A stretch of 64,000 nucleotides of DNA from Escherichia coli (GCF_044324875.1 NZ_CP172185.1); one strand, 5' to 3'. Positions 21,105 through 28,700 are shown, counted from the stretch's first letter. Numbers and translations are program-made. The notes: generated by a model from the letters alone, not told the origin.

Positions 21105-23390
21105 TCAGATCTTACATGCGCCGCTTTCGCAGCCATCGTCCTGGATTGACGGCACCAGATCGTCTTGTGCGTCTTCAGCGCCGTCACGGGTGTTCTGATA
21201 ATACAGCGTTTTGACCCCGAATTTGTAGGCGGTGAGCAGGTCTTTCAGCAACTGCTGCATCGGCACTTTTCCTGACGGGAAGCGTGACGGATCGTAGTTG
21301 GTGTTAGCAGAGATCGACTGATCGATAAATTTCTGCATGATACCCACCAGTTGCAGGTAGCCATCGTTACCCGGCATTTCCCACAGCAGCTCATAGGCGT
21401 CGTGCAGATGCTCGTAGTCCGGCACCACCTGGCGCAGAATACCGTCTTTCGACGCTTTGATGCTGACGTAACCACGCGGCGGTTCAATACCGTTAGTGGC
21501 GTTAGAGATCTGCGAAGAGGTCTCGGACGGCATCAGAGCAGAAAGCGTGGAGTTACGCAGGCCGTGCGTTTTGATTGACTCACGCAGTGCTTCCCAGTCG
21601 TAATGCAGCGGCTCATTAGCGATGGCATCCAGATCTTTCTTATAGGTATCGATCGGCAGGATCCCTTTCGCGTAAGTGGTTTCGTTAAACCACGGGCACG
21701 CGCCTTGCTCTTTCGCCAGCTCGTTAGACGCTTTCAGCAGGTAATACTGAATGGCTTCGAAGGTTTTATGCGTCAGGTTGTTGGCGCTGCCGTCGGAGTA
21801 GCGTTTACCGTGCTTCGCCAGGTAGTAAGCGAAGTTGATCACACCAATCCCCAGCGTACGGCGACCCATCGCCCCGCGTTTGGCGGCCGGGATCGGGTAA
21901 TCCTGATAATTCAGCAGCGCGTCGAGTGCGCGTACCGCCAGAATTGCCAGCTCTTCCAGTTCATCCAGGCTGTTAATTGCGCCCAGGTTGAAAGCAGACA
22001 GCGTACAGAGCGCGATTTCACCGTTCTCGTCGTTGACGTCGTTCAGCGGTTTGGTCGGCAGGGCGATCTCCAGGCACAGGTTAGACTGGCGCACTGGCGC
22101 GATGGCCGGATCAAACGGGCTATGGGTATTGCAGTGGTCAACGTTCTGAATATAGATACGACCGGTAGACGCACGTTCCTGCATCATCAGCGAGAACAGC
22201 TCAACGGCTTTCACACGCTGCTTGCGGATGCTGTCGTCTTTCTCATATTTGGTATACAGACGTTCAAACTCTTCCTGATCGGCGAAGAACGCGTCGTACA
22301 GCCCCGGTACGTCGGACGGGCTGAACAGGGTGATATCTTCACCTTTCAGCAGACGGGTATACATCAGTTTGTTGATTTGTACCCCGTAGTCCATATGACG
22401 CACGCGGTTGCCTTCCACCCCACGGTTGTTTTTCAACACCAGCAGGCTTTCAACTTCCAGATGCCACATCGGGTAGAACAGCGTTGCTGCACCGCCACGC
22501 ACACCGCCCTGAGAGCAGGATTTCACCGCTGTCTGGAAATGTTTGTAAAACGGAATACAGCCGGTGTGGAATGCTTCGCCACCGCGAATCGGGCTACCCA
22601 GCGCACGAATACGCCCGGCGTTGATGCCGATCCCGGCACGCTGGGAAACGTATTTAACAATCGCGCTGGAGGTGGCGTTAATGGAATCCAGGCTGTCGCC
22701 GCACTCGATCAGTACGCATGAGCTGAACTGACGAGTCGGGGTACGCACGCCGGACATGATTGGCGTCGGCAGCGAAATTTTAAATGTGGAAACCGCGTCG
22801 TAAAAACGCTTCACGTATTGCAGGCGCGTTTCACGCGGGTAGTTCGAGAACAGGCACGCGGCAACCAGAATATAAAGGAACTGGGCGCTTTCATAGATTT
22901 CGCCGGTCACGCGGTTCTGTACCAGATATTTGCCTTCCAGCTGCTTAACGGCAGCATAAGAGAAGGTCATATCACGGTCGTGATCGATAAACGTGTCCAT
23001 CTGCTTGAACTCTTCTTCCGTGTAGTCTTCCAGCAGATGATTATCGTATTTGCCCATCTCGACCATTTTCACCACGTGGTCGTACAGCGCAGGCGGCTCA
23101 AACTGACCGTAGGCTTTTTTACGCAGGTGGAAGATCGCCAGGCGCGCGGCGAGATACTGATAATCCGGCGCATCACGGGAGATCAGGTCTGCGGCAGCCT
23201 TAATAATGGTTTCGTGGATGTCAGAGGTCTTGATACCGTCATAAAACTGAATGTGGGAGCGCAGTTCGACCTGGGAAATAGAAACGTTATGCAGTCCTTC
23301 TGCCGCCCAATCCAGAACGCGATGGATTTTGTCGAGATTGATGCGCTCTGTGCTACCGTCGCGCTTTGTCACCAGCAGATTCTGATTCAT
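21105..23390 (-). CDS. nrdA: Class Ia ribonucleotide reductase alpha subunit
   Basis: 761-aa ORF MNQNLLVTKRDGSTERINLDKIHRVLDWAAEGL... with ATP-cone and catalytic cysteines. Confidence 0.95.
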   Translation of the reverse strand: MNQNLLVTKRDGSTERINLDKIHRVLDWAAEGLHNVSISQVELRSHIQFYDGIKTSDIHETIIKAAADLISRDAPDYQYLAARLAIFHLRKKAYGQFEPPALYDHVVKMVEMGKYDNHLLEDYTEEEFKQMDTFIDHDRDMTFSYAAVKQLEGKYLVQNRVTGEIYESAQFLYILVAACLFSNYPRETRLQYVKRFYDAVSTFKISLPTPIMSGVRTPTRQFSSCVLIECGDSLDSINATSSAIVKYVSQRAGIGINAGRIRALGSPIRGGEAFHTGCIPFYKHFQTAVKSCSQGGVRGGAATLFYPMWHLEVESLLVLKNNRGVEGNRVRHMDYGVQINKLMYTRLLKGEDITLFSPSDVPGLYDAFFADQEEFERLYTKYEKDDSIRKQRVKAVELFSLMMQERASTGRIYIQNVDHCNTHSPFDPAIAPVRQSNLCLEIALPTKPLNDVNDENGEIALCTLSAFNLGAINSLDELEELAILAVRALDALLNYQDYPIPAAKRGAMGRRTLGIGVINFAYYLAKHGKRYSDGSANNLTHKTFEAIQYYLLKASNELAKEQGACPWFNETTYAKGILPIDTYKKDLDAIANEPLHYDWEALRESIKTHGLRNSTLSALMPSETSSQISNATNGIEPPRGYVSIKASKDGILRQVVPDYEHLHDAYELLWEMPGNDGYLQLVGIMQKFIDQSISANTNYDPSRFPSGKVPMQQLLKDLLTAYKFGVKTLYYQNTRDGAEDAQDDLVPSIQDDGCESGACKI

Positions 23391-23465
23391 GTATGTCGTA
23401 CCTGTTTTTGGAATTCTTTCCGCAATAGTTTCATGCAGACTACCTGTAGTGAGGGAAGCTGCTTA

Positions 23466-23515
23466 GAACACTATATATAGGGGGTATGTTTGGGATTCAC
23501 TGCAAGATAGTGTGA
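23466..23515 (-). promoter_or_regulatory. Pair of NrdR boxes in the nrdA promoter region
   Basis: On the nrdA strand: ccccctatatatagtgttc and tcacactatcttgcagtg, two 16-18-bp palindromic boxes about 30 bp apart, 75-125 bp upstream of the nrdA ATG. Confidence 0.6.
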
Positions 23516-23544
23516 AAATGGCCCTCTTGCAAGTGCATAACTTT

Positions 23545-23553
23545 GTGGATAAC
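23545..23553 (-). promoter_or_regulatory. DnaA box (TTATCCACA) upstream of nrdA
   Basis: tgtggataa on the plus strand is TTATCCACA on the nrdA strand. Confidence 0.5.
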
Positions 23554-24085
23554 TCAGGAAGGAAAAAGTGGCTTTCGCGCACCTTAGGTCAGACAAGGTG
23601 TCCGGGAAAGTCAATGGGAAGAGAAAAATTTGTTAAAAATAACTGTTCGGCGATTTCTTGAACGGAAGAATAGGTTAGATAAATTGATATAGATGGTTTA
23701 TTAATCTTTTGGCTAATGATTGCAAAAATTGATCTAAGCACGAGTCATCACATAATCTGATGTATCAGTTATGGTCAATATATAAGCGAATGTAAGCGAT
23801 TGTTGATATCGAAATGGTTGTTTTCTCTTCGGTTGTTGTTAAATGCGAAGCCATTTTGTTAATTTACCTTATATTATAAGAAAATTATTCATTACTTTAA
23901 TTCAGTTTAAACATAACTGATATCCCTTAAGGTGATTAACTTGAATTATGACGCACTGATATTATTCATGAAATAATAACAAAATAGCCATTGCACCGGG
24001 TTGAACAATTTACAAAAGAAAAATAACCCATATCGTATAATGCGATTAAATATGCCGTCTTATAGAAAATGATGGTCAGATTAAT

Positions 24086-27000
24086 ATGCGGATTATTTTT
24101 CTACGCAAGGAGTATTTATCTTTACTCCCGTCAATGATTGCATCTCTTTTCTCTGCTAACGGTGTCGCGGCGGTCATTGATTCATGTCAGGGATATGATA
24201 TCAAAGCGAGTTGTCACGCCAGCAGGCAAAGCCTTTCAGGCATTACGCAGGACTGGAGCATCGCCGATGGGCAATGGCTGGTTTTTTCGGATATGACCAA
24301 TAACGCCAGCGGTGGGGCCGTATTTTTGCAACAAGGAGCGGAGTTTTCTCTATCGCCAGAAAATGAAACTGGAATGACTCTGTTTTCCAATAATACTGTC
24401 TCAGGAGAATATAATAACGGCGGGGCAATATTTGCTAAAGAAAACTCAACGCTGAATCTTACTAATGTTATTTTTTCCGATAACGTTGCAGGTGGCTATG
24501 GTGGCGCAATCTATTCTTCTGGTACTAACGATACCGGTGTCGTCGATTTAAGTGTCACTAACGCCGTGTTTCGCAATAACATCGCTAATGACGGCAAAGG
24601 TGGTGGAATTTATACCATCAACAATGACGTCTATTTAAGTAAAGTTATTTTTGATAACAACCAGGCATATACATCAACAAGTTACAGTGATGGCGATGGG
24701 GGTGCAATCGATGTCACCGATAATAATAGCGATATCACGCATCCGTCAGGTTTCACAATAATAAATAACACCGCATTTACAAATAACACTGCCGAAGGTT
24801 ATGGTGGGGCAATTTATACCAATAGCGTGTCGGCTCCCTATCTTATTGATATTTCGATTGATGACAGCTACAGCCAGAACGGCGGCGTGTTAATCGATGA
24901 GAACAATAGCGCGGCAGGTTATGGGGATGGTCCTTCCACTGCGGCGGGCGGCTTTATGTATCTCGGCTTAAGTGAAGTTACCTTTGATATTGCCGACGGA
25001 AAAACGCTGGTTATCGGCAATACAGAGAATGACGGAGCTGTTGACTCTATTGCTGGTACCGGGGTAATCACCAAAACAGGTTCCGGCGATCTGGTACTTA
25101 ATGCAGATAACAATGACTTTACTGGTGAGATGCAGATAGAAAACGGTGAAGTTACCCTGGGCCGCAGCAACTCCCTGATGAATGTCGGCGATACGCATTG
25201 CCAGGACGATCCGCAAGACTGCTATGGTCTGACGATAGGGAGTATTGATCAGTATCAGAATCAGGCTGAGCTAAACGTTGGCTCGACCCAACAAACTTTT
25301 GTGCACGCATTGACGGGCTTTCAGAATGGCACTTTAAATATCGATGCTGGTGGCAACGTTACTGTTAATCAGGGCAGTTTTGCTGGCACCATCGAAGGTG
25401 CTGGTCAGCTCACCATTGCGCAAAACGGCAGCTACGTGCTGGCAGGGGCTCAGTCGATGGCGCTAACTGGCGATATAGTCGTTGATGATGGCGCGGTGCT
25501 TACGCTGGAAGGCGACGCGGCAGATCTTGCCGCTCTCCAGGACGATCCGCAGTCGATCGTGTTAAACGGCGGTGTGCTTGATCTCTCTGATTTCGCCACC
25601 TGGCAGAGCGGCACATCATACAACGATGGCCTTGCAGTCAGCGGCAGCGGCGGTACGGTTATCGGCAGTCAGGATGTGGTGGATCTCGCAGGGGGCGACA
25701 ATTTGCATATCGGCGGCGACGGGAAAGATGGCGTCTACGTGGTGATCGATGCGGGCGACGGGCTGGTTAGCCTGGCAAACAATAATAGTTACCTGGGCAC
25801 CACGCAAATCGCTTCCGGTACGCTGGTGGTGAGCGACAACTCGCAGCTTGGAGATACCCATTGCAACCGCCAGGTTATCTTTACCGATAATCAACAAGAA
25901 AGCGTGATGGAGATTACTGCCAATGTCGATACTCGCTCTACAACGACTGAGCATGGGCGTGATATTGAAATGCGCGCCGACGGTGAAGTGGCAGTTGATG
26001 CGGGGGTAGACACGCAGTGGGGCGGACTGATGGCTGACAGCAGCGGGCAGCATCAGGATGAGGGTAGCACATTGACTAAAACGGGGGCGGGTACGCTGGA
26101 ACTGACCGCCAGCGGTACGACGCAGTCGGCGGTACGTGTCGAAGAAGGCACCCTGAAAGGCGATGTTGCGGATATCTTCCCTTATGCTTCGTCGCTGTGG
26201 GTCGGTGACGGGGCAACATTCAAGACTGGCGCGGATCAGGATATTCAGTCAATTGATGCTACTTCCAGCGGCACTATCGACATCAGCGATGGTACGGTTT
26301 TGCGCCTGACCGGGCAGGATACTTCCGTCGCCCTTAATGCCTCACTGTTTAACGGCGATGGGACGCTGGTGAATGCCACCGATGGTGTGACGTTGACAGG
26401 TGAGCTTAATACCAACCTTGAAACTGACAGCCTGACTTATCTTTCCAACGTGACGGTTAATGGCAATCTGACCAATACGTCCGGTGCGGTTAGCCTGCAA
26501 AATGGCGTCGCTGGCGATACGCTGACGGTAAACGGTGATTATACCGGCGGCGGTACGCTACTGCTCGATAGCGAATTAAACGGCGATGACTCGGCAAGTG
26601 ACCAACTGGTGTTGAACGGTAATACTGCTGGCAACACGACCGTGGTAATTAATCCCATTACGGGTATTGGTGAGCCGACATCTACAGGCATTAAAGTGGT
26701 TGATTTCGCAGCTGATCCCACGCAGTTTCAAAACAATGCGCAGTTCAGTCTGGCAGGTAGTGGCTACGTCAATATGGGAGCGTATGACTACACGCTGGTG
26801 GAAGATAACAACGACTGGTATCTGCGATCGCAAGAAGTAACGCCGCCATCGCCACCTGATCCCGACCCGACTCCCGATCCTGATCCCACACCGGATCCCG
26901 ATCCAACACCCGACCCAGACCCTACGCCTGCTTACCAGCCGGTGCTGAATGCCAAAGTTGGTGGATATTTTAATAACCTGCGGGCGGCAAATCAGGCGTT

Positions 27001-27838
27001 TGTGATGGAGCGACACGATCACGCTGGTGGCAATGGTCAGACGCTGAATTTACGTGTTATCGGCGGAGATTATCATTACACAGCAGCGGGGCAACTGGCT
27101 CAGCATGAAGACACTTCTACGGTGCAGCTTAGCGGCGACTTGTTTAGCGGGCGCTGGGGCACGGATGGCGAGTGGATGCTTGGGGCGGTTGGTGGCTACA
27201 GTGATAACCAGGGCGACAGCCGCTCGAATATGACCGGAACTTGCGCCGATAACCAGAACCACGGTTATGCCGTTGGTCTGACCTCAAGCTGGTTTCAGCA
27301 CGGTAATCAGAAGCAGGGGGCCTGGCTGGATAGCTGGCTGCAATACGCGTGGTTTAACAATGATGTTTCCGAACATGAAGATGGCGCGGATCATTACCAC
27401 TCATCGGGGATTATCGCCTCGCTGGAAGCCGGGTATCAGTGGTTACCGGGGCGTGGTGTGGTGATTGAACCGCAGGCGCAGGTGATTTATCAGGGCGTGC
27501 AGCAGGATGATTTTACCGCCGCTAACCATGCGCGCGTGTCACAATCGCAGGGGGATGATATTCAGACGCGGCTGGGTTTACACAGCGAATGGCGTACCGC
27601 GGTTGGTGTCACACCAACATTAGATCTGAATTATTATCACGATCCCCATGCGACGGAAATTGAAGAAGATGGCAGCACTATCAGTGACGATGCGGTGAAG
27701 CAACGGGGTGAAATAAAAGTGGGAGTCACGGGCAATATCAGTCAGCGAGTGTCCCTGCGTGGTAACGTGGCGTGGCAGAAAGGGAGTGATGATTTTGCCC
27801 AGACGGCAGGGTTTTTGTCGATGACGGTGAAATGGTAA
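24086..27838 (+). CDS. yfaL: AIDA-type autotransporter adhesin (beta-helix passenger, Pro-rich linker, C-terminal beta-barrel)
   Basis: 1250-aa ORF with N-terminal signal, GGA(I/V)Y-type passenger repeats, a (PDPT)n linker and C-terminal barrel ending in aromatic W; a 690-bp AT-rich leader lies upstream. Confidence 0.9.
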   Translation: MRIIFLRKEYLSLLPSMIASLFSANGVAAVIDSCQGYDIKASCHASRQSLSGITQDWSIADGQWLVFSDMTNNASGGAVFLQQGAEFSLSPENETGMTLFSNNTVSGEYNNGGAIFAKENSTLNLTNVIFSDNVAGGYGGAIYSSGTNDTGVVDLSVTNAVFRNNIANDGKGGGIYTINNDVYLSKVIFDNNQAYTSTSYSDGDGGAIDVTDNNSDITHPSGFTIINNTAFTNNTAEGYGGAIYTNSVSAPYLIDISIDDSYSQNGGVLIDENNSAAGYGDGPSTAAGGFMYLGLSEVTFDIADGKTLVIGNTENDGAVDSIAGTGVITKTGSGDLVLNADNNDFTGEMQIENGEVTLGRSNSLMNVGDTHCQDDPQDCYGLTIGSIDQYQNQAELNVGSTQQTFVHALTGFQNGTLNIDAGGNVTVNQGSFAGTIEGAGQLTIAQNGSYVLAGAQSMALTGDIVVDDGAVLTLEGDAADLAALQDDPQSIVLNGGVLDLSDFATWQSGTSYNDGLAVSGSGGTVIGSQDVVDLAGGDNLHIGGDGKDGVYVVIDAGDGLVSLANNNSYLGTTQIASGTLVVSDNSQLGDTHCNRQVIFTDNQQESVMEITANVDTRSTTTEHGRDIEMRADGEVAVDAGVDTQWGGLMADSSGQHQDEGSTLTKTGAGTLELTASGTTQSAVRVEEGTLKGDVADIFPYASSLWVGDGATFKTGADQDIQSIDATSSGTIDISDGTVLRLTGQDTSVALNASLFNGDGTLVNATDGVTLTGELNTNLETDSLTYLSNVTVNGNLTNTSGAVSLQNGVAGDTLTVNGDYTGGGTLLLDSELNGDDSASDQLVLNGNTAGNTTVVINPITGIGEPTSTGIKVVDFAADPTQFQNNAQFSLAGSGYVNMGAYDYTLVEDNNDWYLRSQEVTPPSPPDPDPTPDPDPTPDPDPTPDPDPTPAYQPVLNAKVGGYFNNLRAANQAFVMERHDHAGGNGQTLNLRVIGGDYHYTAAGQLAQHEDTSTVQLSGDLFSGRWGTDGEWMLGAVGGYSDNQGDSRSNMTGTCADNQNHGYAVGLTSSWFQHGNQKQGAWLDSWLQYAWFNNDVSEHEDGADHYHSSGIIASLEAGYQWLPGRGVVIEPQAQVIYQGVQQDDFTAANHARVSQSQGDDIQTRLGLHSEWRTAVGVTPTLDLNYYHDPHATEIEEDGSTISDDAVKQRGEIKVGVTGNISQRVSLRGNVAWQKGSDDFAQTAGFLSMTVKW
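26853..26928 (+). repeat. In-frame (CCN GAY CCN ACN)n repeat encoding the (PDPT)n linker of YfaL
   Basis: Translation SPPDPDPTPDPDPTPDPDPTPDPDPTP; the DNA is a near-perfect 12-bp tandem repeat. Confidence 0.8.
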
Positions 27839-27860
27839 TCGCTGTCTGACCGGCACTATT

Positions 27861-27962
27861 GCCGGATGCGGCGTAAACGCCTTATCTGGCCTACGGGAGC
27901 ATTTGTAGGCCTGATAAGACGCGGCAAGCGTCGCATCAGGCATTGGCACGGTTGCCGGATGA
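27861..27962. repeat. REP/BIME cluster between convergent yfaL and ubiG
   Basis: gccggatgcggcgtaaacgccttatctggcctac and gcctgataagacgcggcaagcgtcgcatcaggc palindromic units. Confidence 0.7.
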
Positions 27963-27977
27963 ATCCAAACAACAACC

Positions 27978-28700
27978 TCACTTATTCTGCGTGTGCAGCA
28001 TATAGTTCACATCGACGCCGGGGCCGAGCTTAAAGGAATTAGTGATCGGGTTGTAATGCAGCCCGGTTATATGTCGCTCTTTTAAACTGGTCTGATCCAC
28101 CCAGCCCAGCAGTTCTGCCGGTTTTATAAATTTCTTCACGTCGTGCGTACCTTTGGGCACCATGCGCAAAATATATTCCGCGCCAACCACCGCCATCAGC
28201 CATGACTTGCCGTTGCGGTTAAGCGTTGAGAAAAAGACATCGCCGCCCGGTTTCACCAGTTGCGCACAGGCTCTGACCACTGACTGCGGATCGGGAACGT
28301 GCTCCAGCATCTCCATGCAGGTCACCACATCATACTGCCCGGCATGTTTTGCCGCGTGCTCTTCCACGGTTTCCTGCACGTACTCTACCTGAATGCCACT
28401 TTCCAGCGCGTGCAACTTTGCCACCTGCAATGGCTCAAAGCCCATATCCAGACCGGTCACCGTCGCGCCTTCGCGCGCCATACTCTCGGCCAGAATGCCG
28501 CCGCCACAACCGACATCGAGCACCTTTTTGCCAAATAAACCGCCAGCACGCTCGGCAATATAGCCCAGACGCAGCGGGTTAATGCGGTGCAGCGGTTTGA
28601 ACTCACCTTCAAGATCCCACCAGCGGGAGGCGACAGCTTCAAATTTAGCGATCTCTTCGTGGTCTACGTTATGGTTTACCGGCGATTTTTCGGCATTCAT
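27978..28700 (-). CDS. ubiG: Ubiquinone biosynthesis O-methyltransferase
   Basis: ORF 27978..28748; start chosen at ATG 28700 ([20 protein letters not shown]) with GGAG SD; SAM-binding motif LDVGCGGG. Confidence 0.9.

Follow-up and report, generated by a model that had tools for sequence, protein, structure and literature searches.

Introduction

Proline-rich stretches have already been described in autotransporters. In TibA, the self-associating autotransporter of enterotoxigenic Escherichia coli, a proline-rich domain (residues 627-677) separates the junction region from the membrane-embedded domain (PMC3835316). In Bordetella, pertactin alleles differ in the copy number of the proline-rich repeats R1 and R2, on a slow timescale (PMC8931430). 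YfaL has been assigned to the Group 8 autotransporters together with IcsA, ShdA, MisL and EhaA (PMC9289746), and it is considered a cryptic adhesin that promotes biofilm formation only when expressed from a constitutive promoter (PMC3764049). Here we analyze the proline-rich tract of the yfaL/ehaC gene present in a 64,000-nt stretch of E. coli DNA (GCF_044324875.1, NZ_CP172185.1), which will be called the window and whose positions are counted from its first letter.

In the ORF list the gene appears as an uninterrupted open reading frame (ORF) of 1250 amino acids (aa), at positions 24086..27838 of the + strand. The Pfam search on this protein recognized Chlam_PMP and PATR repeats in the passenger, an AC_1 domain at aa 794-904 and an Autotransporter beta-domain at aa 989-1228. 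A 381-nt linker probe matched 5,419 of 5,426 complete E. coli genomes, in which the matching genes carry the RefSeq label 'yfaL: AIDA-I family autotransporter adhesin YfaL/EhaC', and the window protein presents 95% amino-acid identity with K-12 YfaL. Position and identity thus mark the gene as yfaL/ehaC, a predicted AIDA-I-type autotransporter adhesin and the orthologue of K-12 yfaL. A previous description of the window, made by a model from the letters alone (hereafter the sequence-only reading), had proposed a 1250-aa autotransporter yfaL at this place, and this was borne out by the ORF, the Pfam domains, the RefSeq naming and the synteny described below.

Our main conclusion, to which we assign a probability of about 0.8, is that YfaL/EhaC carries a proline-rich spacer with a slow, lineage-associated and repeat-mediated length polymorphism. 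Earlier work had described the gene, with its architecture and cryptic expression, as well as proline-rich spacers in autotransporters; to this we add a catalogue of spacer alleles and an apparent link between the variability of an array and the perfection of its repeats.

The repeat array in the window

The peptide of the tract (...SPPDPDPTPDPDPTPDPDPTPDPDPTPAYQP) is located between the autochaperone domain and the barrel, and has the layout TPPSP-(PDPDPT)x4-PAYQP. The sequence and the domain matches agree here with the sequence-only reading, which had placed a linker between passenger and barrel. The proline-rich acidic tract, delimited on the sequence, covers positions 26840..26941 (+ strand, aa 919-952), and the repeat array within it, defined by Tandem Repeats Finder and by unit comparison, consists of four 18-bp units, each one encoding PDPDPT, at 26855..26926 (+ strand, aa 924-947). 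In the stretch around the tract from R917 to V958 (given as 45 residues), 38% of the residues are Pro and 20% are Asp or Glu.

The sequence-only reading had also described the linker as a (PDPT)n repeat encoded by near-identical 12-bp units, and on these two points our results differ. With Tandem Repeats Finder, a period of 18 obtained a score of 73 with 76% matches, and a period of 12 a score of 40 with 65% matches and 16% indels. Consistently, the self-identity of the array is 0.74 at lag 18 vs 0.57 at lag 12. A 12-bp unit encoding PDPT was rejected, given that the peptide is aperiodic at four residues and that the DNA identity at lag 12 is only 0.57; the real unit is PDPDPT, of 18 bp. Neither are the DNA copies near-identical. 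The pairs of units present 67-83% identity, their codons are fully scrambled, with all the 28 pairwise mismatches at codon position 3, and the longest exact direct repeat of the array has only 9 nt (CCTGATCCC, at lag 24). The mean identity between units was 0.741, and 0.765 +/- 0.019 was obtained after shuffling synonymous codons within the array. As the observed value is not above this null, the window DNA has no repeat signal beyond that imposed by the peptide. A recent DNA duplication as the origin of the perfect peptide repeat was rejected too, the synonymous sites between units being saturated.

Only 147 of the 5,426 genomes carry the perfect four-unit peptide, which is thus a minority allele. 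In K-12 the fourth unit is PDPEPT, the difference lying in two adjacent codons (CCG GAA in K-12, CCA GAC in the window). It is the presence of PDPDPT instead of PDPEPT as fourth unit that makes the peptide repeat of the window perfect.

Length alleles among complete genomes

To catalogue the spacers, we read the tract in 28 fetched alleles, and each allele was then counted in the 5,426 complete genomes by means of allele-specific junction queries of 32-42 nt (28-nt exact word). Sorting the alleles by length from identity bands, or from the coverage of longer BLAST queries, was discarded, because split pieces are joined and deletions would look fully covered. A first protein search returned mostly fragments or truncated products, and it served for rare alleles and not for frequencies. 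In a 60-row spread sample of the probe matches, record spans of 381, 387, 363 and 357 nt were observed.

The sequence-only reading had suggested that the length of the linker could vary between strains. The repeat units were counted across genomes and their number is not invariant: roughly 31% of the 5,419 complete E. coli genomes matched by the probe deviate from the window in spacer length. Nine length differences were confirmed by sequence (+18, +6, -6, -12, -18, -24, -36 and -168 nt, plus one loss of the whole spacer), and seven of them are changes of repeat units, between +18 and -36 nt. The observed changes are multiples of 6 nt, in frame, and they end at short direct repeats; except for two rare larger deletions they are small (2-12 residues). 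In an alignment of 17 alleles over the whole gene, at least four indels were located in the 72-nt array vs one in the remaining 3.7 kb.

Regarding the individual alleles, the length of the window (0 nt of difference) is found in the 147 genomes with four perfect units and in the K-12 type, whose fourth unit is PDPEPT and which comprises about 3,570 genomes, by subtraction. An allele with ...PDPAPDPT is 6 nt longer (+6 nt) and is present in 294 genomes, a count that includes the sequenced 042-type alleles of -12 nt; the 042-type junction itself (-12 nt) was detected in 26 genomes. The family PDPDPDPT-PDPDPT-PDPI, which includes O26, O111 and O121, is 18 nt shorter (-18 nt) and reaches 1,232 genomes by its 3' signature, its two derivatives included. 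One of these derivatives has lost one unit (-36 nt; 6 + 17 genomes, in two synonymous backgrounds), and the other has gained one, resulting in three tandem copies and again 0 nt of difference (5 exact genomes and 5 with one mismatch, in PPL and PPS backgrounds). The arrangement PDPDPT-PDPT-PDPEPT (-24 nt) was found in 174 genomes, a five-unit K-12-type allele (+18 nt) in 2 records, and a K-12-type allele lacking 6 nt (-6 nt) in 1 genome. The larger changes are a 168-nt in-frame deletion (-168 nt) in the genome of VTB97022v (L006), and the absence of the whole tract from one fragment derived from the European Nucleotide Archive (P0009). The deletion of VTB97022v corresponds to window positions ~26712-26879 and is bounded by two copies of CTGATCCCACGC: one codes for AADPTQ, where the autochaperone region finishes, and the other is within the proline-rich array. 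The autochaperone domain thereby loses its C-terminal end.

A further proposal is that selection tunes spacer length to the thickness of the surface glycan (O-antigen or capsule) of each lineage, or that the tract serves for acid shedding at Asp-Pro bonds. We give it a slim chance of being right. If it were true, the short alleles fixed in the large family to which O26, O111 and O121 Shiga toxin-producing E. coli belong, compared with the longer ones elsewhere, would set the reach of the adhesin beyond the lipopolysaccharide, and some lineages would keep repeat-perfect arrays as a slow 'length rheostat'. In the related idea, the eight acid-labile Asp-Pro bonds would allow the release of the passenger at low pH.

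Repeat perfection and tempo of the length changes

The alleles differ in the extent of their exact repeats, which measure 20 nt at lag 18 in the -18 family, 38 nt in its three-copy derivative, 11 nt in the K-12 type and the mentioned 9 nt in the window. The -36 and the three-copy alleles correspond to the -18 allele minus or plus exactly one 18-nt unit, the changes falling within exact repeats of 20-38 nt. Copy-number variants represent 33 of the 1,232 genomes of the -18 family (about 2.7%), vs at most 28 of ~3,870 (<1%) in the K-12 and +6 backgrounds, and many of these 28 or fewer probably belong to one lineage. On these sequence counts, which are of genomes and not of independent events, copy-number variation appears to be commoner where the DNA units are truly near-identical.

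Two O111:H8 genomes illustrate the process. The yfaL genes of TW05614 and 7-16 37A are free of substitutions over 3,717 nt, and their sole difference is one 18-nt unit. The same 18-nt loss is found in DEC9B, on a haplotype with 3 differing sites. These comparisons of alleles indicate recent and recurrent events. In the window allele, 146 of the 147 carriers are at least 99% identical over a 115-nt segment comprising the tract with its flanks, with the same length in all the 47 matches listed. The exception is AF40, whose 24-nt deletion is precisely the one that the 9-nt repeat CCTGATCCC predicts.

The sequence-only reading had considered the repeats prone to slippage. The ends of the indels at direct repeats and the deletion of AF40 are in favor of this idea; however, the changes occur mostly in other allele families and their tempo is slow. 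The major length alleles, each of them common to hundreds to thousands of genomes, fit with old, mostly lineage-fixed events.

Carried further, the idea would make the spacer a contingency (hypermutable) locus, in which frequent slippage within a strain generates subpopulations of different linker length and a rapid adaptive change in the projection of the passenger. Length alleles do exist, copy number has changed between the near-identical O111:H8 genomes, and gains and losses recur on different backgrounds, as such a locus would produce. Nevertheless, contingency loci are built of many identical short units (typically 1-8 nt), and the array of the window, with the unit identities and the 9-nt repeat given above, is not of this kind. 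The near-invariance among the carriers of the window allele, with no length difference among the 47 matches listed, the frequency of only about 2.7% in the most repeat-perfect family and of <1% in the K-12-type background, and the wide sharing of the major alleles are also contrary to frequent slippage. As for ON/OFF switching, all the repeat-associated alleles keep the frame, and the only frameshift (L008, 1 nt) is located outside the array. For these reasons we consider a contingency locus very improbable. As judged from the alleles compared, the locus is better described as one of slow, in-frame, repeat-mediated length drift and not as a phase-variable switch.

Position of the tract in the protein

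The AC_1 autochaperone domain is encoded at 26465..26797 (+ strand, aa 794-904; Pfam PF18883, E=2.2e-18), and beta-structure runs past it up to a WYLRS motif at ~aa 914-918. In a sequence search, the autochaperone structures of IcsA (3ML3 and 5KE1) and residues 29-137 of the AIDA-I structure 4MEE align up to WYLRS, and residues 149-463 of 4MEE align from the pore helix onward, the match to the AIDA-I sequence having E=1.4e-34. We obtained an AlphaFold2 model of aa 790-1250 from 48 distant homologues, with a mean predicted local distance difference test score (pLDDT) of 92.4 and a predicted template modeling score of 0.88. The model shows strands up to aa 919 and coil at aa 920-948, with block pLDDT values of 79, 66 and 83. 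Next, a predicted alpha-helix in the barrel pore is encoded at 26951..26995 (+ strand, aa 956-970; query residues 167-181 of the model, pLDDT >90), followed by the C-terminal beta-barrel at 27041..27832 (+ strand, aa 986-1249), which is defined by the PF03797 match (E=4.5e-33) and by the model strands at query residues 197-460 (pLDDT >90). The Foldseek matches for the model include EspP, BrkA, Hbp and NalP, the best one being the AIDA-I transport unit 4MEE (E=3e-27, target-normalised TM-score 0.92, root-mean-square deviation 1.6 A).

The protein therefore has what is found in type Va autotransporters: a PF03797 beta-barrel, an autochaperone at the end of the passenger, a predicted pore helix and orthology to K-12 yfaL. 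Since the IcsA and AIDA-I matches bracket the tract and AlphaFold2 models it as coil, the tract is predicted to be an extracellular spacer that joins the autochaperone domain to the pore helix, at the outer mouth of the barrel. It is an acidic stretch of ~30 residues, modelled as unstructured and probably polyproline-II-like. The polyproline-II helix rises about 3.1 A per residue, and we infer that 30 residues in this form would span roughly 9 nm.

The gene, its neighbors and its upstream region

The window gene is the same gene as K-12 YfaL and enterohemorrhagic E. coli EhaC, with equal length (1250 aa), neighbors and domain order. It is preceded by nrdA (21105..23390, - strand) and followed by ubiG (from 27978, - strand), and the order nrdA-yfaL-ubiG-gyrA is common to the window and K-12 DH5alpha, as is the neighbor ypaB. 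The latter is a small ORF of 47 aa (23518..23661, + strand), with visible ATG and stop, for which RefSeq relatives have the annotation 'protein YpaB' at the corresponding place. The N-terminus of YfaL, MRIIFLRKEYLSLLPSMIASLFSANGVAAV, is signal-peptide-like by eye, and its aa 1-30 are 100% identical to those of K-12.

The nrdA-yfaL intergenic region (23391..24085) is 96.4% identical to that of K-12. Its composition profile shows an AT-rich part at about 23600-24100, where the GC content is 0.29-0.36 (0.29-0.33 at 23700-24100) vs about 0.5 in the flanks; this zone also houses the divergent upstream region of nrdA, with ypaB at its edge. In K-12, the yfaL/ypaB intergenic region (534 bp) is one of 78 'promoter islands' and was H-NS-bound in all the chromatin immunoprecipitation (ChIP) studies compiled (Panyukov and Ozoline, PMC3661553 Table 1). 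The promoter/terminator scan of the window found 6 promoter-like sites upstream, where 3.3 +/- 1.8 were expected, which is not decisive. In the Rfam scan of 23300-28100 no RNA family match was obtained, and consequently a structured leader RNA is not supported. As a side observation, a 10-bp tandem repeat, TAAGCGAATG x2.1, was found in the AT-rich region at 23783..23803 (Tandem Repeats Finder score 35). The sequence-only reading had spoken of an AT-rich leader, probably silenced by H-NS. Its AT-richness is clear and the H-NS binding can be transferred from the K-12 ChIP studies; that it is a 'leader' is not established. By analogy with what others have shown in K-12, H-NS would bind the AT-rich region upstream of yfaL in the window and probably keep the expression of the gene low.

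The gene is disrupted in some strains: L008 has its 1-nt frameshift just past the tract, L015 has an annotated internal stop, and in L017 the gene is split into three ORFs. This inactivation fits with a dispensable, rarely expressed adhesin. In Shigella sonnei, dozens of 'partial' YfaL fragments (P0012, P0025-P0118) were found on contigs of ~1.9 kb. Within the 461-aa query their matches stop at 16-31% of its length, at the proline-rich tract or ahead of it, and a 306-aa C-terminal fragment complements them; the gene of S. sonnei is probably interrupted near the tract, for example by an insertion sequence.

The passenger of yfaL falls into two deep allelic classes. Over 24086-26400, MRY15-131, EC5654, clone D i2 and D10 (L011-L014) belong to a class different from that of the window, with 73-79% nucleotide identity over the passenger and 91-97% over the autochaperone and barrel. 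At 25.6-26.0 kb the nucleotide diversity rises to 0.15-0.18, vs 0.03-0.04 in the barrel. The situation looks like a cassette-like replacement, or like long-term balancing or diversifying selection.

Beyond the stop codon of yfaL, the stretch at 27850..27945, before ubiG, contains GCCGGATGCGGCG...CGCATCAGGC-type motifs, which we take to be palindromic elements of the repetitive extragenic palindromic (REP) type; they mark the 3' boundary of the locus and are outside the finding. The length of the yfaL-ubiG intergenic region varies by strain (about 60, 127 or 140 nt), which suggests variation in REP copy number.

Proposed explanation

We propose that the spacer would hold the adhesin off the outer membrane, a role of spacing that follows from its predicted position. 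Selection would keep the (P-D/T) peptide pattern, with the exact length only loosely constrained. The coding DNA would behave as a set of 6-nt and 18-nt sub-repeats, in which replication slippage, or deletion and duplication at short homologies, would occasionally shift the length by multiples of 6 nt; owing to this 6- and 18-nt make-up, length changes would always be in frame. The rate would follow the perfection of the repeats, being appreciable in the B1-type allele, where two units share 20 exact nt, and very low in the window allele, where the units are scrambled at every synonymous site. The outcome would be a slowly evolving, mostly lineage-associated length polymorphism.

Several points weigh against this explanation or against parts of it. 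The genome counts are not numbers of independent events, as the collection over-samples clones and the alleles were counted without placing them on a core-genome tree. The junction k-mers miss alleles with extra single-nucleotide polymorphisms or unanticipated structures, and in consequence the list of alleles is a lower bound. Recombination could be an alternative for some of the cases in which the same allele appears on different backgrounds. The peptide is not strictly conserved, as the tract presents non-synonymous variants (D->E, P->Q, P->S, T->I, D->A and D->V). The confidence of AlphaFold2 within the tract is only moderate (66-83), and the evidence for H-NS comes from K-12 only.

These non-synonymous variants would also be expected under antigenic variation, that is, if immune or phage selection acted on an exposed immunodominant repeat, as proposed for pertactin R1/R2, whose repeat number varies among alleles (PMC8931430). 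In E. coli, yfaL has been reported under positive selection (PMC9110714), and its passenger is hypervariable, with a nucleotide diversity of up to 0.18. Nevertheless, the tract region is less diverse than the passenger (0.07 vs 0.11-0.18), and the differences between units within the window allele are all synonymous. Moreover, the gene is cryptic in laboratory conditions and H-NS-bound in K-12 (PMC3764049, PMC3661553). We thus regard antigenic variation as improbable, and we favor the slow, repeat-mediated length polymorphism.

Comparison with other autotransporter spacers

To place the tract among related proteins, we surveyed 150 representatives of the family (50% clustering, 30-57% identical to the query). 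A linker between the WYL motif and the helix motif was recognizable in 141 of them, with a median length of 41 aa (range 23-176), a median proline fraction of 0.29 and a median Asp+Glu fraction of 0.17. Among these 141 linkers, 102 contain at least 0.25 of proline, and (PX) runs of 5 or more occur in 50 and PDP[DE]PT in 14. As far as these sequences tell, a proline-rich spacer at the position of the YfaL tract is near-universal in the family, and hence ordinary.

The range of lengths and the very different repeat motifs could also mean that the tract is a neutral low-complexity filler, where any flexible segment suffices and the polymorphism is mutational noise without phenotype. It is in line with this possibility that AIDA-I manages with about 11 residues and that alleles 6-12 residues shorter have been fixed in large lineages. 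However, proline richness and acidity are kept in most of the 141 representatives, and PDPDPT is retained while the synonymous sites are saturated, which points to selection on composition, if not on exact length. Total loss is also rare, being limited to the P0009 fragment and the 168-nt deletion. We consider the neutral explanation unlikely, with some weight left to it, and we maintain that of a spacer whose pattern is selected and whose length drifts slowly.

The practical meaning of these results is that the YfaL spacer is a hotspot of in-frame indels, whose variability appears to track the perfection of its DNA repeats. For those who use YfaL for surface display, the linker length is naturally tolerant of changes of about -12 to +6 residues. 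The spacer region, in turn, may be misaligned in typing schemes or in scans for positive selection. The locus also offers a small natural example in which synonymous scrambling goes together with repeat stability: the window allele rarely varies, and near-perfect arrays gain and lose units.

Compared with the described systems, the closest solved structure is that of AIDA-I (4MEE), which shares with YfaL the autochaperone-like beta domain, the pore helix and the barrel. In AIDA-I, however, about 11 residues separate the WYL(T/R)S motif (WYLTSH) from the helix, and in YfaL about 40, and from this alignment the proline-rich tract of YfaL can be seen as effectively an insertion relative to AIDA-I. 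YfaL presents the repeated Pro-rich peptide, the TibA-like position and the allelic repeat number of proline-rich autotransporter spacers. The domain of TibA occupies the same topological position (PMC3835316); it has ~50 residues and a sequence unlike that of YfaL, and the likeness is one of position and not of direct sequence comparison. With pertactin, YfaL shares proline-rich peptide repeats that vary in number among alleles, between strains and not within an infection. In contrast, R1/R2 are described as loops of the beta-helix passenger, whereas the YfaL spacer follows the autochaperone domain, and the motifs differ. Finally, the vaccine-driven selection that has been proposed for pertactin has no counterpart for YfaL.

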